From positions 76,078 through 140,077 of the forward strand of contig JAGBLL010000036.1 of assembly GCA_017635465.1 (NCBI GenBank): DNA of 64,000 nt, in the 5' to 3' direction. The position numbers were made by a program, and so were the translations under genes. The stretch comes from Bacilli bacterium. GTDB lineage: Bacteria > Bacillota_I > Bacilli_A > RFN20 > CAG-826. Under the pieces are notes generated by a model. That model was not told the origin of the DNA, searched no databases, and worked only from the letters and a program-made list of their open reading frames with translations. This document shows, one piece after another, positions 22,081 to 48,122 of this stretch. Position 1 is the stretch's first letter; every line of letters begins with the position of its first letter.

Positions 22081-22127
22081 ATAAAAATCCTTTCTCGGGG
22101 AGGGGCGTGTACGCGCCTCTCTTTTTT
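22081..22127 (+). terminator. 3' element copy A: anti-SD tract plus GC hairpin terminator
   Basis: ataaaaatcctttctc then gaggggcgtg ... cgcctctc-tttttt. Confidence 0.75.
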
Positions 22128-22137
22128 ACATTATGAG

Positions 22138-22172
22138 TGTAAGGTTATGCACAATAATCGCAATGTTATGCA
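22138..22172 (+). promoter_or_regulatory. Candidate LytTR box (type 1): direct repeat with 21-bp period
   Basis: tgtaaggttatgca (22138) and cgcaatgttatgca (22159); the same motif occurs at 27525/27546. Confidence 0.65.
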
Positions 22173-22299
22173 TTTAGATTGCGTAAAATTGTCATTAATT
22201 GTTATAGTATTAGCGAACTTGTTAAAACATGGATTTTGTCGAAATTCGACTTTTCTATGCTTTAACGCACATAAATATAAGAAGAAAAGGAGAATATTT

Positions 22300-25293: not shown

Positions 25294-25308
25294 TTCAATC
25301 AACATCTA

Positions 25309-25354
25309 ATAGAAACAAACCCCAAATCCTGCTGGGAGGCGGGGTTTGTTCTAT
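25309..25354 (+). terminator. Long hairpin terminator after GH3-2
   Basis: atagaaacaaacccc ... ggggtttgttctat inverted repeat. Confidence 0.6.
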
Positions 25355-25388
25355 CTTTATGCCAATTTAATTGGTATAATAAAAAACA

Positions 25389-26117
25389 ATGAGCGAAACA
25401 TACATCAATATTGCTGTCGTGGAAGATTCCGCTGACGATTTAAACAATTGCTTGGCTTTACTAGATCGCTATAGTAATGAAAAGCATCTAAAATTTGACA
25501 TCCAAACATTCAATAGTGGCGATGCGTTTTTAATGCGTTTCAAAAGCCAATATGACTTCATCATTTTAGACATCAACTTGTCCTCACTTAATGGCATTGA
25601 TGTGGCAAGAACGATTAGAGAAAAAGATGAAGAAGTAATTATTATGTTCGCTACCAATTTAGCAAAATATGCGACTTCTGGTTATGAAGTCGACGCTATA
25701 GACTTTGTATTAAAGCCCTTATCCTATGCTTCTTTCTATTTGAGACTAGAAAGAGTGATGAAAAAGTTAAAGAAGAAAGATGACTTCTTCATCGTTGTAC
25801 CATTCGAAGGTGGCTTTAACAAAATTAATATTAATGATGTCCTCTATGTTGAAGTTATATCTCATGACATAATCTTCCATCTAGTGGATGGTAATGAGAT
25901 TACAACCTCAGGCACATTGAAGAAATACGAAGAGGAATTAAAAAAGCATTGGTTCATTAGATGCAATTCCTGCTATCTAGTTAACGCTCATAAAATTAAA
26001 CGCGTTGAAAAACTTGATATCCAATTAACTAATGACGAAACCATTGCGATCTCTCACCCAAAAAGAAAAGGTTTTATGGAAGCCTTTAAGAAATACATTA
26101 TTGAAGAAGGCAAATAG
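25389..26117 (+). CDS. LytTR-family response regulator 1
   Basis: Receiver motifs VVED, ILDI and KP; C-terminal LytTR FIRCNSCYLVN. Confidence 0.92.
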   Translation: MSETYINIAVVEDSADDLNNCLALLDRYSNEKHLKFDIQTFNSGDAFLMRFKSQYDFIILDINLSSLNGIDVARTIREKDEEVIIMFATNLAKYATSGYEVDAIDFVLKPLSYASFYLRLERVMKKLKKKDDFFIVVPFEGGFNKININDVLYVEVISHDIIFHLVDGNEITTSGTLKKYEEELKKHWFIRCNSCYLVNAHKIKRVEKLDIQLTNDETIAISHPKRKGFMEAFKKYIIEEGK

Positions 26118-26119
26118 AC

Positions 26120-27454: not shown

Positions 27455-27477
27455 TTATTCTTAAAAAGAGATAAAAT

Positions 27478-27513
27478 AAGCACGATGCAAAATATGATTA
27501 TCGTGCTTTTTTT
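27478..27513 (+). terminator. Intrinsic terminator after TCS-1
   Basis: aagcacgat ... atcgtgctt followed by a T-run. Confidence 0.7.
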
Positions 27514-27524
27514 ACATGCACAAA

Positions 27525-27559
27525 TGTAAGATTATGCATAAATGATGTAAACTTACGCA
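27525..27559 (+). promoter_or_regulatory. Candidate LytTR box (type 1) upstream of the lipoprotein operon
   Basis: tgtaagattatgca (27525) and tgtaaacttacgca (27546), 21-bp period. Confidence 0.65.
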
Positions 27560-27754
27560 AGATATATTTTTTATTGTTTTATTCTGCTTTATGATGTTCT
27601 CGAATCAAAAATACTTGGCAAATCTTTTTATTCGCGGTTTTATTCTTGTGATTTGAAGACTTGTTAAAGTATGACACATAAAATGCTTATTTATTAAGAA
27701 GGAATAGTTCTATCCTCTTAGTAAAACTCATTTTTTGAGAAAGGAAAAAACATA

Positions 27755-29344: not shown

Positions 29345-29371
29345 TCCGTAATTATTAAGTGAAAGGAAATA

Positions 29372-29395: not shown

Positions 29396-29409
29396 TTAAT
29401 TAGTAAACT

Positions 29410-31017: not shown

Positions 31018-31045
31018 GTACCTAGATTTTTCAAAAAATCTTTGT

Positions 31046-31098
31046 ATAAAATTCCTTTCTGTAGAAGGGGCGCAGCGCTTGAGCGCCCCTTTTATTTT
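31046..31098 (+). terminator. 3' element copy B: anti-SD tract plus GC hairpin terminator
   Basis: ataaaattcctttct then aggggcgc ... gcgcccct-tttatttt. Confidence 0.75.
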
Positions 31099-31130
31099 GT
31101 CCCAGCAATTGTAGTTTTTATCCCAAGCGT
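31095..31130 (+). promoter_or_regulatory. Candidate LytTR box (type 2) upstream of TCS-2
   Basis: ttttgTCCCA (core 31100) and ttttaTCCCA (core 31121), 21-bp period, ahead of TATAAT at 31152. Confidence 0.55.
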
Positions 31131-31175
31131 GTAGGTTTTAATAATATTTTGTATAATATAAGAGCATAAAGAAAT

Positions 31176-32546
31176 ATGGGCCCTTTAGATTTTGGACAAG
31201 CATTTAGCTTTTACTATCAACGCGTATTAGATTTAACAGTGTATTTAGCGTTTTTCTTTTTAAGTGTTGGTTTGTGCATTTTGATTTGGCCTAAAGAATG
31301 GAATAAGAAAAGTATTATCAAACTTATTTGCGTGTTTGTTGGTAGTTATATCACATGCATCTTGTTCTCGTCTTTGATATTCGCTGCAGTTAGACAAATA
31401 CCTGATCAGCATATTTCTCAAATTGCATACGCTTTTACATTACCGCTTATCATCTTGGCATTCACTTTGATATTTATGCGTAAAGGAAGAGCGATTCATA
31501 GAACAATTAAGGCTATTATCTTGATTTCTTCTATTGCGGTTGTGGAAGTTCTTTCTAAAAACACTGGTTTCTTCTTTGGAATCATCGCTAATGATGTTTT
31601 CATTATTGTTGCTTTAGCTAGATCGCTTCCGTTTGTGCTATTCACATGCGTTTGTTTCTTGCTTCATAAAATTGATATTAATAGATACCGTAACTTATCT
31701 AATGAAATGGTTATAATCATTTCCGTTTTATCCGCTTTATTAGTAACTGCGAGTATCTACGAACAAGCTATTACTACACAAGAAACCGCTACTGTGGCGC
31801 TTCTTTCCTTGTTAGATATTGTTTTGCTATTTGTTCTTAACTTCTCATATTATGCAACATATAAGAATATTGAACATCGTCATAAAATTACTAATCTTGA
31901 AGTTCAAAAGACTTTAGAGGATGCAGAGCGAATGTCTATCGCTATTGACCAAACAAATAGAGAAGAATTGGAAAAACTAAGACATGATATTAAGAACCAA
32001 TTCTCCTATGTTGATATTATGCTTCAACAAGGGCAAAACGAAGAAGCAAAGAAATATATTGAAGATTATATAAACAACAATAATCCTATTCTTCATTCAT
32101 TCTCCTGCTCTAATAACGTTATTAACTCAATCATTAATTTGGAGTTAACTAAGGCTAAGATTAAAAATATTAAGATTGATGTTAAAGTAGTGGTACCACC
32201 TGCTCTACCATTTAAAGATATTGATTTAGTTAGTTTACTAACCAACATGATTGATAATGCTTTAGAAAACTATTATTCAGAAGATAAAGACACAATTACT
32301 GTGCGTATTATGAAGCAAAACGATTTTATTCGTTTCATTGTTTCTAATCCAATCAATATTGAGAAAATTAATCTCCGTAGTCTCACTAAAACAAGTAAGG
32401 CTGGCAGAGGTCATGGTTATGGCACAAAAATCATTAAAAATATTGCGGACGCATATAAAGGATATGTTGATTTCAGTGTCGAGAATAATAGATTTGTCTG
32501 CGACGCTGTTTTAAATTTAAATGTTAAGGAGCAAATGGATGATTAA
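31176..32546 (+). CDS. Membrane histidine kinase 2 (AgrC-like GHKL)
   Basis: Multi-TM N-terminus; LRHDIKN, NMIDNALE and GHGYGTKII motifs. Confidence 0.9.
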   Translation: MGPLDFGQAFSFYYQRVLDLTVYLAFFFLSVGLCILIWPKEWNKKSIIKLICVFVGSYITCILFSSLIFAAVRQIPDQHISQIAYAFTLPLIILAFTLIFMRKGRAIHRTIKAIILISSIAVVEVLSKNTGFFFGIIANDVFIIVALARSLPFVLFTCVCFLLHKIDINRYRNLSNEMVIIISVLSALLVTASIYEQAITTQETATVALLSLLDIVLLFVLNFSYYATYKNIEHRHKITNLEVQKTLEDAERMSIAIDQTNREELEKLRHDIKNQFSYVDIMLQQGQNEEAKKYIEDYINNNNPILHSFSCSNNVINSIINLELTKAKIKNIKIDVKVVVPPALPFKDIDLVSLLTNMIDNALENYYSEDKDTITVRIMKQNDFIRFIVSNPINIEKINLRSLTKTSKAGRGHGYGTKIIKNIADAYKGYVDFSVENNRFVCDAVLNLNVKEQMDD

Positions 32547-33273
32547 GATTGCAATTCTTGATGACGATAAGACAGCGCTAATGATCTCCACAAGTGCAGT
32601 GGAAGCTTTCTTGAAAGAAAAGAATGCGGAATATCGTTTGTTTTCTTTTTCTAATCCTTTAAACTTCCTTGCCAGTGCGAAAGAAGAAAAGTTTGATTTA
32701 TCATTTCTGGACATTGATATGCCTGAAATGAATGGTTTGAGCGTCGCTAATGAGTTAACAACTATTTCTAAAGATGGACAGATTATTTTCTTATCGCAAA
32801 GAGAGGATTTGGTCTTTGAATGCCTTAAGTTCCATCCATTTGGCTTTATTCGTAAATCAAAACTCATTGATGACTTCTCGTTAATGATGAATCAATATTT
32901 CCAAACCATTTCTAATAATGAAAGCAACGAAGCAAAAATTGACTTCTTCGATAAGACAAAGACATTCTCATTCAAGATTAAGGAAATTGTTTATATTGAG
33001 GGCGATAGAAACTATCAAAAAGTTGTACTTAAAGACAAGACCTCACAAAACGTACGCGTGCCTCTGGTTACATTAGAAGATAAGTTACGCGAGTACGGAT
33101 TCTTAAGAATACATAAAGGATATCTAGTTAATTATTTATATATACGTAGTATTGAGAGTGAAGAAGTTTATTTGACCACTGGTATTTCTTTACCAATGGC
33201 CAAGAAAAGAAAAGAAGAAATAATGAAACAATACCTCGCAATTTCTCGTAAAAACAGTGCGGTTATTATCTAG
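32539..33273 (+). CDS. LytTR-family response regulator 2
   Basis: ILDDD, FLDIDMP and FLRIHKGYLVN motifs; start at ATG 32539 behind aaggag. Confidence 0.92.
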   Translation: MIKIAILDDDKTALMISTSAVEAFLKEKNAEYRLFSFSNPLNFLASAKEEKFDLSFLDIDMPEMNGLSVANELTTISKDGQIIFLSQREDLVFECLKFHPFGFIRKSKLIDDFSLMMNQYFQTISNNESNEAKIDFFDKTKTFSFKIKEIVYIEGDRNYQKVVLKDKTSQNVRVPLVTLEDKLREYGFLRIHKGYLVNYLYIRSIESEEVYLTTGISLPMAKKRKEEIMKQYLAISRKNSAVII

Positions 33274-33276
33274 AAT

Positions 33277-33348
33277 TTCATCACAAAAATAAACCATTAT
33301 GTCCCTCGCAGGCATTTTTTTATCTCTTTTTTCATGCTTTGTGACCCT
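33277..33348 (+). promoter_or_regulatory. Candidate LytTR box array (type 2): four degenerate copies with 21-bp period
   Basis: ttcaTCAC (core 33281), tatgTCCC (33302), tttaTCTC (33323), tgtgACCC (33344). Confidence 0.45.
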
Positions 33349-33424
33349 TACAAATTTTCTTTCTTAGTAATTCTTCTATATTGCTTACGACTGAAGTTCA
33401 AACTTCAAAAATAGGAGGAAATCT

Positions 33425-35050: not shown

Positions 35051-35061
35051 GGAGAATAAAC

Positions 35062-38000
35062 ATGGAAAACGAAAATAAAGTCTTAAAAGTCTTAAAACCA
35101 ACAGTACGTGTTTTAACTCTTATCTCTATTGCCTTAGGTTTAGTGGCTATTGCTGTCTTAGTGTTATTCAACTTCTCAGACGTCTTTACCATCTATACCG
35201 ATGATGGCACAAAATACGCAGATGGCTTTTCTTATCCAGGCTATCAAGCTATCTTCTCTGGTTTCGGTAACATGATTATTCAAGGTTACACAGAAGCTAC
35301 ATTCAACATTTGGACATTCTTAGGATGTTTCTTACCATTAATTGGTTGCATCGTTGCTTGTATTATACTCTCAACAAACTTCTTAAGAAGAGGCACAAAT
35401 AAAAAGAAAGCAATCGTAGAAGGCGTTGTCGCAGTTTGCTTAATCTTCGGTGCATTTATCCTCTTGAACGTTGATAAATTATGGATCGAAAATGCTAAAC
35501 ACGTGACTGGTTCTTACACTAATTATTACGAAGCATACTTATTACCTGCAATTAATGGTGAATTATACTTCGGTAGAGATTACTTCCCAGTCGTCACATT
35601 CGTCGTCTGCTTAGTGGTCGGTATCATCAAAGCTATTAACTGTGGCTTACTCTTGTTCCAAAAGTACTACGCTAGAAAAGTTAATAAACAAAACGTCGAA
35701 ATCAGCAAACAGGAGGAGACGGACATGAAAGCAAAAAACAGAAGAATTACATATTTAGCCGTTACAGGCATAGCGGTCCTTGCCATCTTAGGTGGCGCGA
35801 CAATCGCCGCAAACATGCAAGCTAATAACTTAGACTTATTGCTTGGTCGTGGTAAACAACACACAAACGACAACAGTGCTTTAAGTGGTAATTACATTGA
35901 TTTCAAATTTGATAATCAAGATGATGCCTTAAAGAATGCTCAGAGAATGACACAATTAACCGCGGAAGAAGGTATGACGTTATTAAAGAATAAAGATAAT
36001 GCTCTTCCACTTGCCGCTAATGAAGGTGTTACTGTCTTAGGCTATTACTCCTGGCACAACAATATGTCTGGTGGTGAAGATCCAGCTACCACAAGTGGTG
36101 CAGTCTCTCTCGCCAACGGCATTGAACAAGATGCAGCTATCCCATTCAATGCCGCGACAAAACAAGCATACGCTAATGCAAGTGGTGACTTCTCTGAACC
36201 AGCCACAGCTTTAGCCAGTGTGGAATCAACATTCGCTCAATACCCAACCGCAGTTATCACATTAAAGAGAAATTCCGGTGAAGGTAATGATCAATCTTTA
36301 AATCAAGGTGCTTCTGAACAAAATAGAAGTGGTCTTGTCATCACAAACGCTGAATTAAAACTCATCGATTACGCTTGTAAGAAATTCAACAAAGTTATCA
36401 TCGTTATCAACTCTGCTAATGCGATGGAATTAGGTTGGTTACAAGAAAACGATCCACATATGAACAATGGTATCTATACTGATCCATATACCAATCAACA
36501 ATATGACTTCAGCAAAGTTAAAGCCGCTATTTGGGCAGGCTGCTGTGGTTCACAAGGTGGTGTGGCATTAGCCAATATCTTAAAAGGTTCTGTTAACCCA
36601 TCCGGTCACCTCGTTGATACATATGTTCGTGATTTAAGAAACGATCCAACATATAAGAATTTTGGTTCCTATGTCTATAGCAACTCTGACGAACTCAATT
36701 CATACCAAGACGAAACATTCTTCGTTGAATATGAAGAAGGTATCTATGTCGGTTATAGATATTACGAAACAGCGTATAAAGAAGCAAAAGATGGCAACTA
36801 TGCTGGCTTTGATTACGCTAGAGAAGTTGTTTATCCATTCGGTTATGGTTTAAGTTACACAACATTCTCACAAAAATACGTCGGTACACCAAGTTTTGAT
36901 GCTAAGACAAACGAATACACATTCCAAGTCAAAGTGACAAATACTGGTACAGTTGCTGGTAAAGGTGTTGCTCAGATTTATGTGAACGCTCCATATACCG
37001 CTGAAAACAAAACAAACCATGTTGAAAAAGCACATGTCGTCTTAGCAGGCTTTGGCAAAACTGAAGTTTTAGCCGCTGGTGCTTCTGAAACATTGACAAT
37101 CAAAGTTAATAGAGACTATTTCACAAGTTACGATTATCAAGTTGAAAAAGCTTATTTATTAGACGCTGATGAATACAAGTTCTACTTATCCGATAACTCC
37201 CATTCTTGGGCGGAAATCGATGAATTAACAACTGGTAAAGAAAAAGTCTTATGGACTGATACACTTGCTAAGAAAGTTGTCTTTAAAGAAGGCAAAGATG
37301 GTAAGCGTCCAACCGACTTATCAGTCGCTGTTAATAAAGAAGATGATGAATTAAATTATCACTTCAAGAATTATGGTGGCGAACACGATCATGGTGAAGG
37401 CTTTGCCATCAACTTTACAAGAACAGATTTTGCTAAATCATTCCCACAATCTCCACGTGATGAAGATATGGAATTAACTGATGCAAGAGCATTAGAACAA
37501 GTTGCAAAATATGATGTTTGGGCGGAAAAGAACAACCCAATTACTGAAATGCCAACAGTTAATACTGACCCAACAAGTTACACGCTCGCTTCTATGAGAG
37601 GTGTTGATTGGGATGATCCAAAATGGGATGACTATATGAATCAATTCACCAAAGCCAAAATGGTGGAAATGGTCACCAATGGTGGTTGGAATGAAAAAGC
37701 CGATCCTGAAAATGGTGTCCCAGAATCATATGATGCTGACTCCCCATATGGATACTACGCTGCTGCGTTATCAATCAAGAACATTAATAAGTGGTATTGT
37801 GGCGACCCAATGGTTGCAGCTACATTCAATGAAAAACTCGCTAGAGAATTAGGCGAAGCCTTCGGTGAAGAAGCTCATGCTAACTACTTAGCCGGTGGTT
37901 CCTTAATTACAGGTATCTACGGTTATGGTCTCAATATGCATAGATCAGCCTTCTGTGGTAGAAATTATGAATATTATTCAGAAGATGGCATTTTAGCCGG

Positions 38001-38730
38001 TAAGATGGCCGCTGCTGAAGCAGGTGGCGCTTCCGAAAAAGGCTTAATCGTCTTCATGAAACACTATGCCTTAAACGATCAAGAAACAAACCGTCAAAAG
38101 AATGGTTACTGTGCCTGGGTTAATGAACAAGCTTTCCGTGAAGTCTACCTCAAAGGTTGGGAACTTTATATGAAAGAAGCCAAGATGACAGTTAGATACT
38201 ATGCTCAAGAAGGCGAAGTTCTTGCTTCCAAATTATCTGAAAAGACAATGTCTGCTGCTACAGGCATCATGACTTGCTATAACAGAATTGGTGCTACATG
38301 GGGTGGTGCTTCCGTCTCCTTACATGGTATCTTACGTGACGAATTCGGTTTCACAGGTACTGCTATTACAGATGCTGGTGGTCAAAAGAATACATATATG
38401 ACTTCTGACTTCATGCTTAGAAGAGGTGGCCACTTAACATTAACAAATAATGGTACTGATGGCTTATATGACACATCCTCTCCAACTGCAGTCTATTACC
38501 TTAAAGATGCAACAAAGCATATCTTATTCAACAAGGCTAATAGTAACTGTGTCCAAGGTATTTCACCAAGTGCTTCCATTTGGTACGAAATGAGTCCATG
38601 GAAAGGTGGCTTCATCGCTGCTTGGATTATCGTTGGTGTTCTTGCCTTAGCTGATGCAGCCGTCATTACACTCATTGCCCTTAACAAGATTAGTGTTAAG
38701 GAAAGAAAAGAACCAGAAGAAGAATATTGA
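35062..38730 (+). CDS. In-frame fusion: ~216-aa four-TM membrane protein plus GH3 beta-glycosidase 3 (own start at 35725)
   Basis: Single 1222-aa ORF with an internal AGGAGGAG SD and ATG at 35725. The GH3 part has permuted order, MKHY, AITDA, and N- and C-terminal TM helices. Confidence 0.85.
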   Translation: MENENKVLKVLKPTVRVLTLISIALGLVAIAVLVLFNFSDVFTIYTDDGTKYADGFSYPGYQAIFSGFGNMIIQGYTEATFNIWTFLGCFLPLIGCIVACIILSTNFLRRGTNKKKAIVEGVVAVCLIFGAFILLNVDKLWIENAKHVTGSYTNYYEAYLLPAINGELYFGRDYFPVVTFVVCLVVGIIKAINCGLLLFQKYYARKVNKQNVEISKQEETDMKAKNRRITYLAVTGIAVLAILGGATIAANMQANNLDLLLGRGKQHTNDNSALSGNYIDFKFDNQDDALKNAQRMTQLTAEEGMTLLKNKDNALPLAANEGVTVLGYYSWHNNMSGGEDPATTSGAVSLANGIEQDAAIPFNAATKQAYANASGDFSEPATALASVESTFAQYPTAVITLKRNSGEGNDQSLNQGASEQNRSGLVITNAELKLIDYACKKFNKVIIVINSANAMELGWLQENDPHMNNGIYTDPYTNQQYDFSKVKAAIWAGCCGSQGGVALANILKGSVNPSGHLVDTYVRDLRNDPTYKNFGSYVYSNSDELNSYQDETFFVEYEEGIYVGYRYYETAYKEAKDGNYAGFDYAREVVYPFGYGLSYTTFSQKYVGTPSFDAKTNEYTFQVKVTNTGTVAGKGVAQIYVNAPYTAENKTNHVEKAHVVLAGFGKTEVLAAGASETLTIKVNRDYFTSYDYQVEKAYLLDADEYKFYLSDNSHSWAEIDELTTGKEKVLWTDTLAKKVVFKEGKDGKRPTDLSVAVNKEDDELNYHFKNYGGEHDHGEGFAINFTRTDFAKSFPQSPRDEDMELTDARALEQVAKYDVWAEKNNPITEMPTVNTDPTSYTLASMRGVDWDDPKWDDYMNQFTKAKMVEMVTNGGWNEKADPENGVPESYDADSPYGYYAAALSIKNINKWYCGDPMVAATFNEKLARELGEAFGEEAHANYLAGGSLITGIYGYGLNMHRSAFCGRNYEYYSEDGILAGKMAAAEAGGASEKGLIVFMKHYALNDQETNRQKNGYCAWVNEQAFREVYLKGWELYMKEAKMTVRYYAQEGEVLASKLSEKTMSAATGIMTCYNRIGATWGGASVSLHGILRDEFGFTGTAITDAGGQKNTYMTSDFMLRRGGHLTLTNNGTDGLYDTSSPTAVYYLKDATKHILFNKANSNCVQGISPSASIWYEMSPWKGGFIAAWIIVGVLALADAAVITLIALNKISVKERKEPEEEY

Positions 38731-38740
38731 TAGAAAACTT

Positions 38741-38787
38741 CATAAAATTCCTTTCTCGTGAAAGGGGCGCTCAATGCGCCCTTTTCA
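38741..38787. terminator. 3' element copy C: anti-SD tract plus hairpin, possibly bidirectional with tetR
   Basis: cataaaattcctttctc then tgaaaggggcgc-tcaat-gcgcccttttca, between convergent genes. Confidence 0.75.
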
Positions 38788-38821
38788 TTAAGAAAAACTT
38801 CTCAGCCATATAAACGAGAAG

Positions 38822-39403
38822 TTAATCATGATATTCATTATTTTTAAGAGAACTAACACCGTTTTTAATTAAATTAGTTATTAACTGTATCATATCTTCT
38901 TTTGGCATTGCTCTTTTTGTTTTAATCCAGCTACCATACATTGAACTAACACTCATATGATAGTGTTTGAAGACGATACTTTGTACCATTGGATCTAAAT
39001 GAGAAAAAGTGTGAAGCATTTCTTTTTCTTTTAAAAGGATTAACGCGCGTTTTCTTGATAACTCCTTAGTATAGAAATAAGTATCCGTGGAGTTTATTTT
39101 TTGATAAACAGGATTACTTTCGTTTAAATCAAAAAACGCCCTTACAACTGTCTCTACATCTTCCAACAGATTAATACCTCTAACGCGTTGATAAAAGCCT
39201 TTTATCGCTTCTTCTTGTAACTCAACAAAGATATCATCAAGTTGCTTATAATGTAAATAAAAGGTTCTTCTATTAAAACCGGCGGTATCACATAATTCTT
39301 TAACAGTGATTTTTAAATAGTCATCGTAATCAAGTATTAACTTTTTAAAAGCTTCTTTAAAATGTTTTTTTGTTTTTTGGACGCGTGGATCTAGTTCGTT
39401 CAT
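38822..39403 (-). CDS. TetR/AcrR-family transcriptional regulator
   Basis: DPRVQKTK...ITVKELCDTAGFNRRTFYLHY HTH; divergent from the 39734 operon. Confidence 0.92.
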   Translation of the reverse strand: MNELDPRVQKTKKHFKEAFKKLILDYDDYLKITVKELCDTAGFNRRTFYLHYKQLDDIFVELQEEAIKGFYQRVRGINLLEDVETVVRAFFDLNESNPVYQKINSTDTYFYTKELSRKRALILLKEKEMLHTFSHLDPMVQSIVFKHYHMSVSSMYGSWIKTKRAMPKEDMIQLITNLIKNGVSSLKNNEYHD

Positions 39404-39733
39404 TATTTTTTACACACTTTTCGTGCTTTTGCGAATTAAGTTTACTAGAAAGATATGCGTATTACTACATAAATATATGTAATATTTTCAACTAAAATAT
39501 TATAAAAATGCGACTAGCCACAATAGGCAACAATAATTAATGCACATGTTCCTTAAATGTGTGTACTTTCATTTACCAATAGCAAGATTGTCAATATAAT
39601 AACGATAGGAATGTCATATTTTTGATTTCGCAAAGTTATCTATTTTCTATGGAGATTTTTTGTGGCTGATATTCTGACTAATTTGGTACTTACGCGTATC
39701 GCGTATTTATAAGCTTTTTTAAAGGAGACTCGT

Positions 39734-42700
39734 ATGGACAAAAAGCAAAAAAAGAACGTAAAAGTTCTGACTGGCGTTTTGGCTCTTGCAGCAGGCATGG
39801 CAATTGCCTCTGCTACATCCGCTGCTCCAAGTTATGCTTCTTTTGCTGGTGAACAAAAGGGTAAATTCTATCCTGATTTTTCCACATATGCAGAAGAACA
39901 AGAATTTGCGGGCAATTTAAACGTCAAACTTATGCAGGAGAGTATTACTCTATTAAAGAATAAAGATGATGCTCTTCCATTAGCAAAAGGTTCTAATATC
40001 TCATTATTAGGAACCCACTCTTATAGACCATTCTTAGGTGGTACCGGTTCTGGTTCTATCGGTGGCAGTTTCGCTACATTACCAGATAGCTTAACCGAAG
40101 CTGGATTAAACCTAAATGCTGCTATTGCTGATTACTATGAAGCACATGACTACAAATCAAATGTTTGTGTACAAGGTATGTTTACCTCTGCTTCTCAATC
40201 AGTTGATGGCCCTGCTGAAGAAGTTGCACAATTAAAAAACACATTCCAATTATATGGTGATGCAGCAGTTATCACACTTGGCCGTATCGGTGGTGAAGGT
40301 GATGATTTATTAAGAAATCAAGTTGGTACATCTGGCAATATTAAAGTCAATCAAGATGTTACTAAACACAGTCTTGAATTATTTGATACAGAAAAAGACC
40401 TTATTGAACTCGCTAAACAACATTGCGATAAAGTGATTATCTTAATCAACTCCGCTAACGCAATGGAAATTCCTGAATTGGAAGATGATCCTGATATTGA
40501 CGCTATCGTTTGGATTGGTCAACCAGGTGAAACAGGCTTAAAGGGTGTTGGTCCAGTTTTAGTTGGTGATGTCGCTCCATCTGGCAAATTAGCGGATGTT
40601 TGGCCAGCTGATTTCAAAAAAGATCCAACATGGTTCAACTTTGGTAATAACCAACAAAACAATGCATATGATGCTGAAAGCCAACAATTCGCCAGTGAAT
40701 ATGCAAATACTGTTACTAAGAAAGAAGGCAGCACTGTTGCCAACGGCACAAGATATGCTCTTGAAGAAGAAGAAGGCATTTATTTAGGTTACAAATGGTA
40801 TGAAACCGCTGCAGCTGATGATGTTTTAGATAAGATTGCTATTTATGAAGCTGAAAAAGGTGTTATTCCAGAAGATAAAGATGGTGACAAATATTACAAT
40901 CGTTCAACTGGCGTTGTCTATCCATTTGGTTTTGGCTTATCTTACACACAATTCACAAAGCAATTTGTCTCAACAGCTGAACAAATTAAAGCCGCTGTCA
41001 ACGCCTCTTCTTCATTAGAAAGCAGTATCCCAGTTAAAGTTAAAGTTACTAACACTGGTACAGTTGCTGGTAAAGAAGTCGTTCAACTTTATAACCATGC
41101 TCCATATACATTAAACGGCATTGAAAAAGCCGAAGTCTCTTTAGCGGGCTTTGCTAAAACAGATCTTTTAAGACCTGGTAAATCACAAGTCGTTACAGTG
41201 GATGTTAGAGTCGGTGATTTAGCTTCATTCGACTATAATGACGCTAACGCAAACGGCTTCTCCGGTTGGGAAATCGAAGCAGGTAATTATGGATTAAGAT
41301 TACAAGACAACTCTCACGATTGTCTTGCTGAATTAGAATTAGCATTAAACGCAAAAGAATTTAAGAAAGATGGTTCTGCTGCCACTGGTTTAACAGAATC
41401 TGAAAATTATAATGTTTTATCTAAAGGTGATGATTACGATACATTATTACCAATCAAGAAACACGAAGCTGATAAAGATGGTGTCACATTCAAATTAATG
41501 ACACGTTCTAACCTTGTCAGTTCATTCCCAACAGCGCCAAAGGCTGAGGAACGTGTTTATCCAGATGTCGTTCTCGCTTTATTAACAAACTCCAATCAAA
41601 GATCTGGTGTTTCTAGCTATAGTGAAGGTGATGAAGGCTATGACCAATGGGCTAAATATTATCGTTACACTGGTTATTTCAATGGTTCTGATGACTTACC
41701 AACAGACCCATGGTATAAGACCAATGCTGATATCCCAGCTTCTTGGACACAATTAGCAACCGCTAGACAAAGTGGTACACAAACTGAAGTCCTCATCCAA
41801 CAAATGTCTGGTTTAGATTTCAATTCTGATAGAATCGTTCCAGAAGGTCATCCATATGCTGGTTCAACTGAAGCCGAAGCTTGGAACAAATTCATGAACC
41901 AATTAACATATGCTGAATTAGCAGCATTTGTCCAAAACGGTGGTTATAGAACACCAGGCTTAAACGCTATTGGTAAAAAACAATCCGGTGACCAAGATGG
42001 TCCTGCCCAATTAAAAGGTACTCGAAATGGTGGCGACTTTGTTACAAACTTCAACCAAGCTGGTACACCATGGTGCTGCGAAGTCAACATTGCTTCTTCT
42101 TGGAACGTTGATTTAGCTCACAAACAAGGTCTCTGTGTTGGTAATGAATCCTTATTCAATGGCAGTAATGGTTGGTATGGTCCTGCTATGAACATTCATA
42201 GATCTCCATTCTCTGGCCGTAACTTCGAATATTATTCACAAGATGGTGTCCATAGTGGTATCATCGCTGGCGCAGTTGTCTCTGGTGCACAATCCAAAGG
42301 TTGTAACGTCTTCATGAAGCACTATGCTTTAAACGATCAAGAAACAAACCGTATGGATGGTATTGCCACTTACAATTCCGAACAAGCTATTAGAGAAAAT
42401 ATTTTAAAACCATTCGAATATGCAACAAAAGTTGGTCACGCTACTGCTGTTATGACAGCCTTCAATAGATCTGGTTCTATTCCTGCATTCGCTAACTATA
42501 TGTTCAATGAAGAAATCCTCCGTCAAGAATGGGGCTTCATGGGCGAATCCGTTACAGACTACTACTCAGCTTCTATGGGTAAAGGTAACTACTTACAACG
42601 TGGTGGCTGCCATATGGCCTTAAACGGTAACTTAAATTACAACACAAACGTCACAGGTACATCCACAAACACAAATGCTATCACTGGTATTTGGGATGCA

Positions 42701-43882
42701 ACATTACGTGATGGTAAAGGTGGTGTCCGTGATGGTCTTAAAGCAGAAGATGTCATTCCAGAATCTCCAACTCAATACTACGCTATCCGTATGGCCGCTA
42801 CATATATCTGCTGGGTTGGCGCAAACTCCAACGCCATTCAAAATGGTGTCACAACAGTTGGTGCTACAGGCAATACAACAACAGCCGCTAACATCTTCTC
42901 ATTTGATAATGAACAAACAATTAGATATGGTAATCAAGTTGAAATCGATGTCAACGCTGATGCTAAACACATTCCATCAGATTGCTCTGTGAGATATGAA
43001 ATCGCCGGTAACTTACCAGAAGGCTTATCTTTCAATGCTTCCACAGGAAAAATCGTTGGTAGTGCTACAGCTCTTGGTACATACAATGTGACAGTTAGAG
43101 CAATTATTGATAATTACATTTTAAGAACAGCTTCATTAAGAGTTAATGTTGGCCCAACAGCCCAAGTTAACGAAACTGTTTACTTAACACCAACCATTTA
43201 TAAAGTCGGTGATCACTATCAAAATAACCCAACATATGAAATTACTGTTGCTAATGAACCAACAGTCAGTGGCTTCGAAGGCGCTGAAATCGTTACTTTA
43301 GATGCAGAAGCCGCTACTGCTTTAGGATTAGAAGCTGGTACATATATCAAATTATCTTCTGCTGAAGCTGGTTTATTTAACATCCGAGTCAGTCAAGCAA
43401 TCACATATAAAAGAAACGCTTGGCAAACAAGAAATGCTACTGTTACTACAGACTATAGCATCATGATCGGTACTCCAGAAGTTACTCCAGATCCAGTTGT
43501 CCATGGTGGTATTGTTACTTCCGTTATCAACGATCAAGGTCACTTAGTTATTACTTACGAAGATGGCACAGTCGCTGATTTAGGCTTAGTAGTTGGTGCA
43601 AACGGTCAAGACGGCGCACAAGGTCCTGCTGGCCCAGCCGGTGAAAAGGGTGATACAGGCGCACAAGGTCCTGCTGGCCCAGCCGGTGCTGACGGTAAAG
43701 ATGGTGCACAAGGTCCTGCTGGCCCAGCCGGTGCTGACGGTAAAGATGGCGTTGACGGTAAAGATGGTACTTCCGCAAAAGGTTGTGGTGGCTCTATCGT
43801 TGCTACATCAGGCGTCATGGCATTATTCGCCGGTTTAGGCATTGCCATTATCTCTCTCAAGAGATCCAAAAAAGATAACTAA
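39734..43882 (+). CDS. Secreted GH3 beta-glycosidase 4 with He_PIG-like Ig domain, collagen stalk and C-terminal anchor
   Basis: Sec-type signal peptide without Cys; permuted GH3 (RIGGEGDD, GRNFEYYS, MKHY, SVTDY); LPEGLSFNASTGKIVGS; 20 Gly-X-Y triplets; KGCGGS + TM helix + KRSKK tail. Confidence 0.9.
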   Translation: MDKKQKKNVKVLTGVLALAAGMAIASATSAAPSYASFAGEQKGKFYPDFSTYAEEQEFAGNLNVKLMQESITLLKNKDDALPLAKGSNISLLGTHSYRPFLGGTGSGSIGGSFATLPDSLTEAGLNLNAAIADYYEAHDYKSNVCVQGMFTSASQSVDGPAEEVAQLKNTFQLYGDAAVITLGRIGGEGDDLLRNQVGTSGNIKVNQDVTKHSLELFDTEKDLIELAKQHCDKVIILINSANAMEIPELEDDPDIDAIVWIGQPGETGLKGVGPVLVGDVAPSGKLADVWPADFKKDPTWFNFGNNQQNNAYDAESQQFASEYANTVTKKEGSTVANGTRYALEEEEGIYLGYKWYETAAADDVLDKIAIYEAEKGVIPEDKDGDKYYNRSTGVVYPFGFGLSYTQFTKQFVSTAEQIKAAVNASSSLESSIPVKVKVTNTGTVAGKEVVQLYNHAPYTLNGIEKAEVSLAGFAKTDLLRPGKSQVVTVDVRVGDLASFDYNDANANGFSGWEIEAGNYGLRLQDNSHDCLAELELALNAKEFKKDGSAATGLTESENYNVLSKGDDYDTLLPIKKHEADKDGVTFKLMTRSNLVSSFPTAPKAEERVYPDVVLALLTNSNQRSGVSSYSEGDEGYDQWAKYYRYTGYFNGSDDLPTDPWYKTNADIPASWTQLATARQSGTQTEVLIQQMSGLDFNSDRIVPEGHPYAGSTEAEAWNKFMNQLTYAELAAFVQNGGYRTPGLNAIGKKQSGDQDGPAQLKGTRNGGDFVTNFNQAGTPWCCEVNIASSWNVDLAHKQGLCVGNESLFNGSNGWYGPAMNIHRSPFSGRNFEYYSQDGVHSGIIAGAVVSGAQSKGCNVFMKHYALNDQETNRMDGIATYNSEQAIRENILKPFEYATKVGHATAVMTAFNRSGSIPAFANYMFNEEILRQEWGFMGESVTDYYSASMGKGNYLQRGGCHMALNGNLNYNTNVTGTSTNTNAITGIWDATLRDGKGGVRDGLKAEDVIPESPTQYYAIRMAATYICWVGANSNAIQNGVTTVGATGNTTTAANIFSFDNEQTIRYGNQVEIDVNADAKHIPSDCSVRYEIAGNLPEGLSFNASTGKIVGSATALGTYNVTVRAIIDNYILRTASLRVNVGPTAQVNETVYLTPTIYKVGDHYQNNPTYEITVANEPTVSGFEGAEIVTLDAEAATALGLEAGTYIKLSSAEAGLFNIRVSQAITYKRNAWQTRNATVTTDYSIMIGTPEVTPDPVVHGGIVTSVINDQGHLVITYEDGTVADLGLVVGANGQDGAQGPAGPAGEKGDTGAQGPAGPAGADGKDGAQGPAGPAGADGKDGVDGKDGTSAKGCGGSIVATSGVMALFAGLGIAIISLKRSKKDN
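43595..43774 (+). repeat. Collagen-like (Gly-X-Y)20 coding repeat
   Basis: GAN GQD GAQ GPA GPA GEK GDT ... GTS; three copies of gcacaaggtcctgctggcccagccggtg at 45-bp period. Confidence 0.95.
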
Positions 43883-43922
43883 TTGCTAATTTGCAGTTAA
43901 GTTGTTAATTACAAACGAATAT

Positions 43923-43953
43923 GGCTCCCGTGAACACTATGCTCACGGGGGCC
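43923..43953 (+). other. Intercistronic GC-rich stem-loop without U-tract
   Basis: ggctcccgtga-acactatgc-tcacgggggcc. Confidence 0.6.
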
Positions 43954-44004
43954 TTATCAAGCATTAAAATGCATGCATATGCACGCATAGAAAAGAGGGT
44001 ATTT

Positions 44005-45039
44005 ATGAAAATCAACAAATTATTAGGTTTGACTTTGCTCTTGAGTTCCATGACAATCTCTGCTTGTAGTGGTAAAGCTTCCTCTAACGAAGAAAAGAAA
44101 CCATCAAGTGCTACACCTAGCGTTGTTGAACCAAGTTCGAATACATCGTCAAGTTCAGTTGTTCAACCAAGTTCAAACAGCGCTCCTAAATCAAGCTCAA
44201 GCAGCACTCCTAAATCAAGTTCTAGCGCTCAACCAAGTTCAAACAGTGCTCCTAAATCAAGCTCAAGCGCTCAACCAAGTTCAAATTCTCAACAAAGTTC
44301 ACAAAGCAGTAGTGGCTCTAATGTCGATCAATATCTTTTGAAACACGCTGAAGGTCAAACTGCTAATTATATTTTTGAAGCTGAATGTACAGACTTAAGA
44401 GGTAAAAGTGGCTCTGGATATTCTGGTGGTGCAACCGGTTCAGGTTTAGCTACTCATAATGCTTCAGACATTTCATTTGTCACTTTCTTATATACAGAAG
44501 GAATCTCTGTTAATTTCTTCGTCGCATGTGATAGAGATGTCAGCGACGCTAAATTAAGAGCGAGATTCGGTGGCGAATTTATTCATGTCTTACTAAGTCC
44601 AGATAATTACACAATTCGTGTTGACCAAGCCATTGATTCTGCTTTCCTTACAGACTATGACCCTGATAATTTAGATTCTGATGGTTCATTAGGAAACTGG
44701 GATTCATTCTTCCTTAACTATTACAGTGTTGAAGAAACAAATGGCTATTTCCTTAGCGAATGGGAATGCGAAAGTATCGATATTGATGCTTCTAATCAAA
44801 GCGATGTTGTCGGATGGAATACTTTCGATATCACATTTGCTCTTTCTCTTAAACAAGGCATCAATTGCATCTCATTAATTACTGATAATGAAGAAATTAC
44901 AGGCGATGCTCCTCATGGCACAATGACCGCAACAGCACCTGTTATTGACTATATTTCCATTGAAACAAGTGCTCAATTAGGTGTTTTTAACGCAAAAGAT
45001 AATGGCGAAGGTGAAAATGCTGTTCACTTCGCTGCCTAA
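44005..45039 (+). CDS. Lipoprotein with Ser-rich linker and CBM6/35-like module
   Basis: Start at ATG 44005 (gaggg SD); lipobox ISAC; repeated QPSSNSAPKSSSS; YIFEAE...LKQGIN...APVIDYISIE pattern. Confidence 0.7.
   Translation: MKINKLLGLTLLLSSMTISACSGKASSNEEKKPSSATPSVVEPSSNTSSSSVVQPSSNSAPKSSSSSTPKSSSSAQPSSNSAPKSSSSAQPSSNSQQSSQSSSGSNVDQYLLKHAEGQTANYIFEAECTDLRGKSGSGYSGGATGSGLATHNASDISFVTFLYTEGISVNFFVACDRDVSDAKLRARFGGEFIHVLLSPDNYTIRVDQAIDSAFLTDYDPDNLDSDGSLGNWDSFFLNYYSVEETNGYFLSEWECESIDIDASNQSDVVGWNTFDITFALSLKQGINCISLITDNEEITGDAPHGTMTATAPVIDYISIETSAQLGVFNAKDNGEGENAVHFAA
44101..44320 (+). repeat. Ser/Pro-rich linker repeat
   Basis: Near-tandem caaccaagttcaaacagYgctcctaaatcaagctcaagc units. Confidence 0.85.
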
Positions 45040-45058
45040 TAGTAAGGAGCTTTAATCT

Positions 45059-48040
45059 ATGGGTATTAGAAAAAGTGGATTAATTCCATGGGCAATTACT
45101 ACAGCTGTTTTAACTGGTGTATTAATTACCGCTAACGTTCTTTTAACAGGACCTTTAAAAGGTATTGTTTCTACCGCTTTAAGTGATAGAGGCAGAATGG
45201 AACTCATTAATGAAGATGGTTCTAGATTTAAACTAGATGAAGGTATTACTGATAAAGCATCTGCTAAAGAAAATGGTAATAAAACAAACATTAATATTGT
45301 TCGTGAAGGTATTACACTTCTTAAAAACAAGGATAATAACGCTCTTCCATTAGCAAAAGGAGCTAAATTATCTATCTTTGGTAAGAATTCGTCTAATGTC
45401 GCTATTGGTGGATCTGGCTCTGGTAGTGCTTCTACTGATGGTATGATTGATTTCTTCTCTTCACTAGAAAAAGCAGGTTTTACATACAATCCTACGTTAA
45501 AAGCTTTCTATGATGATAATACAAAATCTGGGGCAGGTAGAGATAAAAACAACAAAGACTTAGATAGTGGTAAACCTATCGAATTAGTGGAATCTTATGT
45601 TGGTGAAACCGAAATCACTGCTTATACAGATGATATTTGGAATAGCTGTAATGAATATAAAGACGCTGCTTTAATTATGATTACACGTATCGGTGGTGAA
45701 GGTGCTGATTTACCAAGAACACCAACTGATCATATTTTAAAATTACGTCCAGCGGAAAAAGACTTAATTAACAAAGTCAAGACAATGGGTTTTGGTAAAG
45801 TAGTATTAATGCTCAATACCGCGACATCATTAGAACTTGGCGATGTGCAAAAAGATGAAGGTGTTGATGCCATTTTATGGATTGGCTATGACGGTACAGC
45901 TGGTTTGACCGCTGTGGGTGAAGTCTTAAAAGGCGAAACTAATGATGGCGTTAAATTTTCTCCTTCTGGTAAAACAGTTGATATTTATCCAGCAGATTTT
46001 ACAAAAGATCCAACATGGAATAACTTTGGTGGTAACATCGGTGTTGTTTCTCAAGGTGAAGGTAGCAAGTACGTTGGTGTTTCTGGCGATTGTTATTACA
46101 CAATGGCCAAAAGAGGACCAGTTGATTCCCAAATCTATTTTGCCGACTATGAAGAAGGCATTTACTACGGTTATAGATATTATGAAACCGCCGCAGCGGA
46201 TGGCTATATCAACTATGATGAAGCCATTGTTTATCCGTTTGGTTATGGTTTGAGCTATACAAACTTCTCTTGGGAATTAAAGAATAAGGCTAGTATTCCT
46301 ACTACTTTAACAAAAGACACAAAGATGACTTTTGAAGTTGAAGTTACTAATACTGGTACATATCCAGGTAGAGATGTTGTTGAACTCTATGTCACACCAC
46401 ACTATAACGTTGGTGGTTTAGATAAAGCCGCTAAGATTCTTGTTGGCTTTGATAAAACAGAATTATTACAACCAGGTGAAAAAGAAACATTAAAGATTAC
46501 AATTGATTCACCATATTCATATGCTTCTTATGATTATAAAGGTGTTACTGGTCAAAAAGGCTATGTTGTTGAAGCAGGTAATTATTCTTTCACATTAGGT
46601 ACAGATAGCCATCACGCAAAAGAAATGTCTGATGCTGTTATAACCGCTAATGTTGCAGATAACATCCGCTATGAAAAAGATCCTATTACAGATAATGAGA
46701 TTAAAAATCTTTTCTCTGATAACGAAGATCCATATTTAAACGGGGACGCTCAACTTGGCTCAATTATGCACCGTAATGACTTTGCGGGAACATGGCCTCA
46801 AACAAGAAGTGAAAACGAAAAGAAAATCGGTGGTGAAAAGATTAAAGAAGGATGGGAAATCTCTTCTGATTGGATTAGCAAGATGAAGGATTATACTCCA
46901 AAGCCAAATAATCCTATCAATATTACTGAAATGCCAGTTACTGGTGCAGATAATGGCATTAAATTTACTGACTTAGTAATGTTAGATTACAATGACAAAA
47001 AATGGGACGAATTCATTGATCAATTAACTAAAGAAGAAATGAAGACATTGATTAATGAAGGTGCCTTTATCACTAGCGCAATTGCTAGATTAGGCGTTCC
47101 TCCAACCGATAATACCGATGGTCCAGTTGGTTGGGTCAACTTTATTGACCAGAAAACATTCACAGGCACATGTTCTTATTGCTGTGAAGTCGTTATCGCT
47201 TCCACATGGAATGTAGACCGTGTTTATGATATGGGTAGAGCAGTTGGTAACGAAGGTCTTGTTGGTAATACACAAAATTCGATCAATAGACCATATACTG
47301 GCTGGTACGCTCCAGGTCTTAATATTCACCGTTCTCCATTTGGTGGTAGAAACTTCGAATACTATTCAGAAGATCCATTCTTAAGTGGTATTTTAGCGGC
47401 TTCTATTTCTAAAGGTACTTGGTCAAAAGGCTGCTATACAACATTAAAGCACTTCGCGGTTAATGAAACCGAGACACATAGAATGGGCTTATTAACATGG
47501 CTTGATGAACAAAACTTAAGAGAAAACTATCTTAAAGGCTTTGAAATCGCTGTTAAAGGTGGAAATAGTGACTTGAATAATCACGAATACTTTGGCGAAG
47601 ATAAAGCCACAAAACCAGTTTCTGTTATGACTTCATTTAACAGAATTGGTGAAAGATGGACAGGTGGCGACTATCGCGTTAACACCCTCATCTTAAGAGA
47701 AGAATGGGGCTTTGAAGGATTTACAATCTGTGACTTCAACACCAATGAATTCATGGTGGAAAAAGATATGTTCTATTCCGGTGGTGACCTTAATTTACAA
47801 GGCGCCGGTAACGTATGGAATCCAGACTTTAGTAGTCCTAATGATGTTGAAGTTATGAAGAAATGTTCTAAAAACATCCTCTATGTTGTAGCAAATAGTA
47901 ATGCAGTTAGAGGTGAATTTAAAGTCCATATGCCAAATTGGCAAATCGGCTTATATATTGGAACAGGTGTAGTGGCCGCTGGATTATTAACTTGGGGCTT
48001 CTTCGTCTTCTTTAAAATCTTTAGACGCAAAACGAAGTAA
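45059..48040 (+). CDS. GH3 beta-glycosidase 5, permuted, with N- and C-terminal membrane helices
   Basis: EGITLLKN, RIGGEGAD, GRNFEYYSEDP, LKHF and TICDF motifs; C-terminal TM plus RRKTK. Confidence 0.9.
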   Translation: MGIRKSGLIPWAITTAVLTGVLITANVLLTGPLKGIVSTALSDRGRMELINEDGSRFKLDEGITDKASAKENGNKTNINIVREGITLLKNKDNNALPLAKGAKLSIFGKNSSNVAIGGSGSGSASTDGMIDFFSSLEKAGFTYNPTLKAFYDDNTKSGAGRDKNNKDLDSGKPIELVESYVGETEITAYTDDIWNSCNEYKDAALIMITRIGGEGADLPRTPTDHILKLRPAEKDLINKVKTMGFGKVVLMLNTATSLELGDVQKDEGVDAILWIGYDGTAGLTAVGEVLKGETNDGVKFSPSGKTVDIYPADFTKDPTWNNFGGNIGVVSQGEGSKYVGVSGDCYYTMAKRGPVDSQIYFADYEEGIYYGYRYYETAAADGYINYDEAIVYPFGYGLSYTNFSWELKNKASIPTTLTKDTKMTFEVEVTNTGTYPGRDVVELYVTPHYNVGGLDKAAKILVGFDKTELLQPGEKETLKITIDSPYSYASYDYKGVTGQKGYVVEAGNYSFTLGTDSHHAKEMSDAVITANVADNIRYEKDPITDNEIKNLFSDNEDPYLNGDAQLGSIMHRNDFAGTWPQTRSENEKKIGGEKIKEGWEISSDWISKMKDYTPKPNNPINITEMPVTGADNGIKFTDLVMLDYNDKKWDEFIDQLTKEEMKTLINEGAFITSAIARLGVPPTDNTDGPVGWVNFIDQKTFTGTCSYCCEVVIASTWNVDRVYDMGRAVGNEGLVGNTQNSINRPYTGWYAPGLNIHRSPFGGRNFEYYSEDPFLSGILAASISKGTWSKGCYTTLKHFAVNETETHRMGLLTWLDEQNLRENYLKGFEIAVKGGNSDLNNHEYFGEDKATKPVSVMTSFNRIGERWTGGDYRVNTLILREEWGFEGFTICDFNTNEFMVEKDMFYSGGDLNLQGAGNVWNPDFSSPNDVEVMKKCSKNILYVVANSNAVRGEFKVHMPNWQIGLYIGTGVVAAGLLTWGFFVFFKIFRRKTK

Positions 48041-48082
48041 AAGTATCTCAATAATTAAATAATTTAGATTACTTATTCACTT

Positions 48083-48122
48083 CATAAATTCCTTTTTATA
48101 GAGGGGCGCTCTGGCGCCCTTC
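48083..48122 (+). terminator. 3' element copy D: anti-SD tract plus GC hairpin
   Basis: cataaattccttttt then gaggggcgc-tctg-gcgcccttc. Confidence 0.7.

Follow-up and report, generated by a model that had tools for sequence, protein, structure and literature searches.

Intrinsic terminators of low-GC Gram-positive bacteria are GC-rich stem-loops that follow a stop codon, end in a T-rich tail and show compensatory changes in their stems. Hairpins of this kind close four transcription units in a 64,000-nt stretch of DNA (the window; contig JAGBLL010000036.1, positions 76,078 to 140,077) from an uncultured rumen bacterium of the genus CAG-826 (Bacilli). Each hairpin is preceded by a pyrimidine-rich tract that resembles the anti-Shine-Dalgarno (anti-SD) tail of 16S rRNA, and this tract-and-hairpin element is the subject here. 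It is unlike other terminators of the class in its conserved pyrimidine 5' flank and in the poor U tracts of two of its copies.

Pyrimidine motifs complementary to a Shine-Dalgarno (SD) sequence are known from mRNA ends. The 3' untranslated region (3'UTR) of icaR in Staphylococcus aureus carries a motif that pairs with the SD sequence of the same transcript, and the 5'- and 3'-UTRs of hbs in Bacillus subtilis interact in a similar way. The four sites share this motif type and its placement. They are unlike icaR and hbs in that no partner is conserved, the distances are 3-8 kb within polycistronic units, the motif is a generic 16S tail, and the evidence is genomic. A second comparison is with the small RNAs (sRNAs) LhrC1-5 of Listeria and with 3'UTR-derived sRNAs. 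LhrC-type sRNAs have a single-stranded CU-rich motif beside the terminator, and their targets are secreted proteins or lipoproteins, which is also the type of several partners predicted here. A family of multicopy CU-rich sRNAs under a two-component system is on record (LhrC, PMC4132741), and the present copies are likewise siblings with such a motif and a link to such a system. They are unlike these sRNAs in carrying one motif per copy, with no Rfam match and no conserved target, and they are known as DNA sequence alone.

Gill et al. (bioRxiv 2025; PMC12697547) report that pyrimidine-rich anti-SD-like 8-mers lower mRNA level and translation in B. subtilis through long-range pairing with the ribosome binding site (RBS). 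The effect is seen even from one 3'UTR position; it falls with distance and can be abolished by structure nearby. Genes are depleted of such 8-mers, and icaR and hbs are named as the few natural long-range cases. The tract resembles these 8-mers as an SD-complementary, pyrimidine-rich sequence far downstream, including in a 3'UTR, and next to structure that may modulate it. Those 8-mers, however, were inserted, deleterious and depleted from genes, whereas the tract is conserved and its 8-nt core is not depleted from sense coding sequence (CDS) in this genome. The preprint's results make a generic anti-SD effect plausible; they also predict shielding by the hairpin and a weak effect over 3-8 kb. 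Cassette junctions such as integron attC and pdif sites are similar in another respect, as imperfect inverted repeats at the 3' end of a module that serve as the breakpoint of its gain or loss. Here the sites have neither integrase nor Xer-type architecture, none of the 35 window proteins scanned is a recombinase, and the modules carry their own promoters and regulators.

A repeated unit in a variable gene island

The four sites are present at the transcription-unit ends where a sequence-only reading of the window had placed them. Each lies 3' of the stop codon of a predicted secreted-enzyme gene, and all four derive, with divergence, from a single unit some 63 nt long. This consists of a tract, ...ATAAA(W)TCCTTTCT, then 2-5 nt, then a GC-clamped intrinsic terminator. 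Its copies, A to D, and their attached features are listed by position in the window.

22081..22096, + strand: tract of copy A (ATAAAAATCCTTTCTC), 3 nt past the stop codon of a GH3 gene (19051-22077)
22097..22128, + strand: terminator hairpin of copy A (22097-22124) and T run; fold -17.6 kcal/mol, stem GGAGGGGC/GCCTCTC
31046..31060, + strand: tract of copy B (ATAAAATTCCTTTCT), 28 nt past the stop codon of an esterase gene (29410-31017)
31061..31098, + strand: terminator hairpin of copy B (31061-31095) and T run; fold -21.8 kcal/mol
38741..38757, + strand: tract of copy C (CATAAAATTCCTTTCTC), 10 nt past the stop codon of a GH3 gene (35062-38730)
38758..38795, + strand: terminator hairpin of copy C (38758-38788), its T-poor tail and an outer extension of 5 bp, UUUCU:AGAAA, with which the fold has -25.7 kcal/mol (z -5.8)
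48083..48099, + strand: tract of copy D (CATAAATTCCTTTTTAT), 42 nt past the stop codon of a GH3 gene (45059-48040); covariance-model E-value 4.8e-8
48100..48127, + strand: hairpin of copy D (48100-48123) with a poor U tract (TTCTTCCTT); fold -18.7 kcal/mol
48128..48145, + strand: downstream partner of tract D, with TAAAAAGG:CCTTTTTA (8 bp) and TTATG:CATAA; SD-like, then ATG
31098..48082, no strand: modules M1 (between B and C) and M2 (between C and D), bounded by units

Identity between copies is 0.60-0.72 inside the unit and 0.47-0.56 in the 200-nt flanks on either side, against 0.49 +/- 0.04 (maximum 0.59) for random 63-mers. The degenerate 15-mer ATAAAWTYCCTTTYT, allowed one mismatch, has three matches in the window (A, B and C) where shuffles give 0.37, though one of 100 shuffles also gave three; D needs two mismatches. 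The hairpins are GC-rich stem-loops with folds of -17.6 to -22.7 kcal/mol. Three of the ten stem pairs show double changes that preserve pairing in an alignment of 16 copies. A and B have good U runs (TCTTTTTT and TTTTATTTT), that of C is interrupted (TTTTCATT) and that of D is poor.

The units divide a highly variable region of GH3, esterase and LytTR genes, called the island here. Module M1 holds a LytTR two-component system, a Big_2 protein and a GH3. M2 holds a TetR-like gene on the minus strand, a GH3 with collagen repeats, a 344-aa protein and a GH3. In all five relatives whose island is contiguous, the unit is the breakpoint between presence and absence of modules. One 49-nt stretch of G009 aligns both to B (31049-31097) and to D (from 48086), so the 17 kb between them, M1 and M2, are absent from that genome. 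In G012, G007, G011 and G003, a stretch of 50-63 nt aligns to both C and D, and these genomes are without window positions 38.8-48.08 kb (M2). Three genomes without M1 (G002, G013 and G014) have B joined directly to the promoter of the last GH3 gene, and the same joint sequence occurs in G022, whose island is split over short contigs. On these alignments, the unit is strictly linked to module joints.

M2 is a 9.3-kb module with its left edge at copy C. Window positions 39400-48080 are unmatched in the 14 other genus genomes with matches, apart from a 229-nt piece in G006. A homologue of M2 on a metagenome contig encodes GH3s with 80-84% amino-acid identity and ends in a different terminator that has no tract. 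On this comparison, the tract at the D joint is older than the module in front of it.

Modules would be gained and lost exactly at the unit, and its copies would then be paralogues of one ancestral joint that was multiplied and reshuffled by recombination at the joint itself. Integrase, resolvase and transposase families were not found in Pfam scans of the 35 window proteins. With no recombinase gene found nearby, homologous recombination at the unit is the simplest mechanism and the probable one. Two open reading frames (ORFs) considered as recombinases were set aside. The 193-aa minus-strand protein (38822-39403, convergent on C) has only weak TetR_N/TetR_C_8 matches (E 0.003-0.006, below the cut-off), and ORF 43921-45039 (372 aa; the 344-aa protein when read from 44005) matches no family.

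Conservation in relatives points to constraint on the tract as part of the unit, as seen at B and at C/D. All 22 other genus genomes have matches to the island's first 20 kb, most of them of about 65-95% identity. Orthologous B sites carry the tract in 8 of 8 cases and C sites in 7 of 8, G018 having a different terminator at C. At A it is found in only two of eight, this genome (G000) and the 95%-identical G009. The other six A sites keep a terminator without the tract; G002, G014 and G022 have the homologous hairpin GGAGGGGC...GCCTCTC behind an unrelated 24-nt spacer, and G003, G008 and G017 have other terminators. Conservation of the tract beyond the hairpin, as the earlier proposal required, therefore holds at B and C and fails at A, where the tract would have been gained or converted.

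In the alignment of 16 copies, conservation is complete or reaches at least 90% in the columns of ATAAA, of TCCTTTCT and of the GGCGC/GCGCC clamp. Variation falls in the purine foot, in the loop and in the stretch between stop codon and unit. Fifteen of the 16 copies have the same 8-nt core, six of its eight columns being invariant. Copy D carries the variant TTCCTTTTT. The conserved block reaches TTCAT, the complement of AUGAA, in 11 copies. Tract variants sort by genome, and B and C sites both follow the grouping: ATTCC occurs in G000, G009, G007, G019 and G003, and AATCC (TATCC in the C copy of G021) in G012, G011, G021, G002, G014, G013 and G022.

The element has a narrow distribution. In the assembly (1.83 Mb, 34.5% G+C) there are 45 fuzzy tract matches with at most two substitutions, and a GGGGCG...CGCC hairpin follows the island copies only; two looser look-alikes from this search are on contigs C100 and C126. 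The covariance model, built from the 16 copies, has exactly four matches in this genome. It was trained on the island copies, so the informative part is the absence of further matches. The "looser version" that had been noted after hsp20 (16851) is a single 10-mer before a different hairpin pair, unmatched by the model. All four copies lie inside 26 kb; they are not scattered through the genome as a dispersed repeat would be, and no target duplications were seen. An Rfam scan of window positions 18000-52000 (E up to 1) gave two weak, unrelated matches and none at the units.

Within the genus, the model finds 1-4 copies in 13 of 23 genomes, nearly all on island contigs. The one strong match elsewhere (contig C104 of G011) is also 3' of a GH3 paralogue. 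There is no match in 150 other genomes of the order (47 genera). The exact gapped pattern of the common type occurs in seven stretches among 185,579 species. Six are from the genus, and the seventh, antisense of an ordinary start region in an unrelated metagenome-assembled genome, is chance-like. The proposed family of regulators is thus reduced to 1-4 copies in one island of one genus. With this range the element is a lineage-specific island feature rather than an RNA family in the usual sense.

Several further observations concern the genes and sites around the units. Contig C126 (about 24544-24600) holds the sole other terminator of the genome with TTCCTTTCT directly upstream (aacaaattcctttcttc GGAAGAGGCTG...CAGCCTTTTCT); it has a purine-rich foot too, yet the model does not match it. 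In five of the six GH3 genes the domains are permuted to GH3_C, Fn3-like, GH3_N. The GH3 before copy C (35062-38730) is a single 1222-aa ORF here and two adjacent ORFs (about 215 and 1000 aa) in G012, G007, G021, G011 and G019 (L070, L071, L073, L077 and L080). In G003 (L078, G003:C9:282000-296000), a chimeric GH3 has the start of the second GH3 (to about 23390) fused to the end of the GH3 before C (from 37612), which implies a deletion by recombination between paralogues. The GH3 at 39734-43882 encodes a 1382-aa permuted protein with a C-terminal collagen triple-helix repeat and a He_PIG Ig domain, and its module is present only in this genome and one metagenome contig (L083).

Predicted pairing of the tract around the terminator

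The tract most likely acts locally. The terminator of the unit has, besides its GGCGC/GCGCC clamp, a purine-rich, SD-like 5' foot, and the tract would serve as a pyrimidine strand that pairs with purine tracts on both sides of the terminator. Its partners would be the 5' foot during RNA synthesis and, in read-through RNA, the SD-like purine stretch and AUG downstream. The unit caps the 3' end of each gene module in an island that would be under LytTR two-component control, and an extended hairpin there would insulate consecutive, separately regulated modules. We infer this function from predicted folds.

Two competing folds of tract and terminator had been proposed from the sequence. The first of them, a tract:foot hairpin of 6-8 bp, is the predicted nascent-RNA fold in 14 of 16 copies (by eye; -3.0 to -8.6 kcal/mol). 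The competition itself is one-sided. In the four copies, the tract:foot hairpin has -5.0 to -8.2 kcal/mol against -17.6 to -22.7 for the terminator, so this is no balanced switch. The element does not resemble an attenuator either, as the helices are of unequal strength, there is no sensor or leader, and it stands at 3' ends. Equilibrium folds of A and B leave the tract single-stranded.

The sequence-only reading overlooked a local purine partner of the tract just past the terminator, present in most relatives and in copy D. Where a joint precedes the promoter of the last GH3, the tract has its partner in an SD-like purine stretch immediately 3' of the terminator, and TTCATAA has its partner in TTATGAA. 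Eight of nine such joints have a three-tier hairpin as their minimum-energy fold (-24 to -37 kcal/mol, z -3.5 to -7.7), with UUCAUAA:UUAUGAA, tract:purine and terminator as its tiers. In an alignment of 11 joints, 83.6% of cells are paired in the proposed register, compared with 49-70% when the partner is slid. Between copy C of G003 and copy D of G000, one tract position changes from C:G to U:A. Copy D folds into the three-tier hairpin at -26.0 kcal/mol (z -4.7), with the partner CCUUUUUA:UAAAAAGG at 48128-48135. In this genome the downstream partner is full in D, 5 bp in C and missing in A and B.

Several results weigh against a local role. Compared with 162 control terminators, the tract:foot hairpin reaches only the 2.5-15th percentile, and the terminator is 3-4 times stronger. 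Covariation in the outer helices is slight, with five double-change pairs that were equalled in 17 of 500 shuffles, and a DNA palindrome fits the outer-helix data as well as an RNA stem. The tract is retained without a downstream purine partner at A and B here and at the B sites of G012, G021 and G007. Paired with the 32 nt past the hairpin, the tracts of 21 copies reach -4.75 kcal/mol, against -5.12 in the 162 controls; this test is noisy, the hairpin end being placed unevenly, and the joint folds are the better evidence. Pairing with a start codon context accounts better for the conserved TTCATAAA part. Of 12 terminators with SD-like arms elsewhere in the genome, two have an upstream pyrimidine tract, against 6% of the rest (correlation 0.01), and a general shielding of such arms from ribosomes by the tract was rejected for want of this association outside the island. 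In one metatranscriptome run (contigs; 5% of sampled words), the esterase and downstream GH3 of a related strain are partly covered, with no contig over the units.

Upstream flanks of other terminators were taken from a crude terminator finder. The 20 nt 5' of its 165 terminator-like hairpins are usually A-rich rather than pyrimidine-rich. The finder missed A, C and D through its tail rule, and a relaxed version (90 sites) recovered B only; both sets serve as controls only.

The promoter regions after the units contain two direct repeats with a 21-nt period (22144-22172, 31100-31135 and 48141-48170): GTTATGCA twice, TCCCA...GTAG twice, and TTATGnnAA twice. This spacing presumably fits the boxes of LytTR-type response regulators. 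The island has two LytTR two-component systems, at 25389-27454 and 31176-33273. At 8 of 11 joints, the SD-like purine stretch past the terminator is followed by a two-codon ORF that overlaps the first direct repeat (ATG AAA TAA, ATG AAT TAA, ATG CAT TAA, ATG AAA TGA or ATG AAC TGA, for example). These lie at L070:10375-10395 and the equivalent place in L073, L071, L078, L076, L074 and L081; the counterpart at copy D of G000 is an eight-codon ORF, 48143-48169.

Predicted pairing with start regions, and rival explanations

The anti-SD character of the tract is borne out by its core, TCCTTTCT: these eight letters also close the 3' end of a congener's 16S gene, which was used because 16S is unassembled in this genome. 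That gene ends ...GGATCACCTCCTTTCTA, and the Rfam match reaches ...CCTCCTTT. We take the mature 16S to run to ...CCUUUCU, as in B. subtilis. The core repeats the ribosomal anti-SD tail and is thus complementary to any good SD sequence.

RNAduplex reproduces the three pairings that had been proposed, here ranked among 1329 predicted starts. D pairs with the 44005 start over 16 bp with a 1-nt bulge (-14.6 kcal/mol, rank 1), A with the start of the first GH3, 19051, over 15 bp with a 3-nt bulge (-11.8 kcal/mol, rank 32), and B with the SD of 27755 over 9 bp (-11.9 kcal/mol, rank 68). These partners were chosen post hoc among several genes per unit. Copy C is without a good partner, its best standing at 17.9% and the downstream genes being ordinary (17-75%). 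The 3'UTR does hold a motif with complementarity to an SD in the same mRNA, but any sequence that resembles the 16S tail would fit any SD in this generic way. The start of the 344-aa protein is probably 44005 rather than the first ATG at 43921. Between that start and the collagen-repeat GH3, window positions 43882-44005 contain a hairpin (GGCTCCCGTG...CACGGGGGCC) and repeated ATGCA motifs.

A gene-specific fold-back in cis, one of the two modes of action that the sequence-only reading had inferred, found no support in relatives. When 15 tracts in relatives were compared with the start regions of their own units, the best percentiles ranged from 1.8 to 93%, with no recurring gene. The lowest two, 1.8% and 3.5%, are from G009, which is 95% identical to G000, and across five genomes the 27755 orthologue stands at 13-23%. 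The top-ranking match, D with 44005, lies in a module that G000 alone has. The tract at D predates M2, so this match cannot explain why the tract was kept. Perfect complements of the 17-nt tract, sought in five genomes, turned up only the tracts themselves at 0-1 mismatch; matches at two mismatches are mostly non-genic, with one orthologous lipoprotein start in G012 and G014. We think that the tract is not a long-range or gene-specific translational regulator.

The favoured account, in which an ancestral joint was multiplied by recombination and its tract pairs locally as part of an insulating hairpin, has in our estimate about an even chance of being right as a whole. One alternative is a generic anti-SD RNA, acting in cis or as terminator-protected 3' fragments in trans (sibling 3'UTR-derived sRNAs) that lower translation or stability of island or secreted-protein mRNAs. 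It is unlikely. These points speak for it: the core equals the 16S end, the conserved block extends to the complement of AUGAA, the tract is unpaired at equilibrium in A and B and is kept where no local partner exists, and a conserved single-stranded seed adjoins the terminator as in known sRNAs. To this are added the high ranks of D, A and B and the precedents, namely the repression that aSD-like 8-mers exert even from one 3'UTR position and the LhrC siblings. When partners across the genome are ranked by summed energy, six of the top 15, one of them a GH3, begin with a signal peptide that has a lipobox-like Cys (by eye). The reading must contend with a partner that is not conserved and, at D, younger than the tract, with cis distances of 3-8 kb and adjoining structure of the kind that weakens such 8-mers in B. 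subtilis, and with the tract's absence from six of eight A orthologues. The 8-mer TCCTTTCT is also not avoided in mRNAs here; of its 161 genomic occurrences, 44 fall within CDS in the sense direction and 41 in the antisense direction, and 24 lie antisense to a start region. In the contigs of the metatranscriptome run, none of them over a unit, no small RNA was seen. A more specific form, in which sibling anti-RBS elements, as 3' fragments or 3'UTRs, would pair with the SD and AUG of secreted-enzyme and lipoprotein mRNAs and throttle translation on module induction while the unit doubles as a homology patch for module swaps, is doubtful.

Equally doubtful is a tract with no function of its own, a passenger of a short sequence copied between terminators by recombination or gene conversion and homogenised. 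The unit is a recombination breakpoint, tract variants group by genome at both B and C, and in G000 and G009 the otherwise orthologous hairpin at site A seems to have gained the tract and a clamp more like that of B, C and D. But copies within a genome are only 60-72% identical, with differing loops and feet, so conversion has not homogenised them, and yet the core is the same in 15 of 16; the spacers beside the tract differ in length and sequence too. An element at the DNA level, in which the palindrome TTCATAA...TTATGAA with an inner CCTTTCT...AGAAAGG is a protein site tied to the LytTR repeats or the fossil of an inverted-repeat insertion, is improbable. Its outer arm TTATGAA is the first of the two 21-nt-period repeats before the downstream GH3 promoter, the island encodes two LytTR regulators, pairing is kept mostly by conservation rather than covariation, and at two joints the model gives a score on the reverse strand as well. 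Its half-sites, however, are about 70 nt apart across the terminator, unlike the direct repeats that LytTR regulators presumably bind; the right half is missing in A and B and TTCAT in A; and 1-4 copies per genome with no target duplications seen are not what a MITE-like element would give. The chance that the reverse complement is the RBS and start codon of a small minus-strand ORF is very slight, and that reading was rejected. The string GAGAAAGGA(N3-5)ATGAA is conserved in most copies, but the frames run from 2 to more than 12 codons with differing sequences and no conserved frame, G000 copies A and B have no ATG in place, and the spacing from AAGGA to the start is 3-5 nt where 289 predicted starts peak at 8-10 nt (17 of 289 at 5 nt or less). 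A ribosome at the stop codon covering the tract was ruled out by the stop-to-tract distances of 3 to about 42 nt. TAAAAT in the tract resembles a -10 box, but no -35 stands at a workable spacing (by eye, B and C), and a promoter there was rejected.

Meaning for the island

The element is limited to one island of one uncultured genus. Should its tract act as an anti-SD RNA, the long-range repression that has been measured with synthetic inserts in B. subtilis would have a natural and conserved counterpart here. If the evolutionary part of the favoured account is true, a terminator-sized repeat would suffice as a joint for adding and dropping separately regulated carbohydrate-degrading modules. 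This would be a simple route to diversity of glycan utilisation in a rumen bacterium, one that needs no mobile-element machinery.

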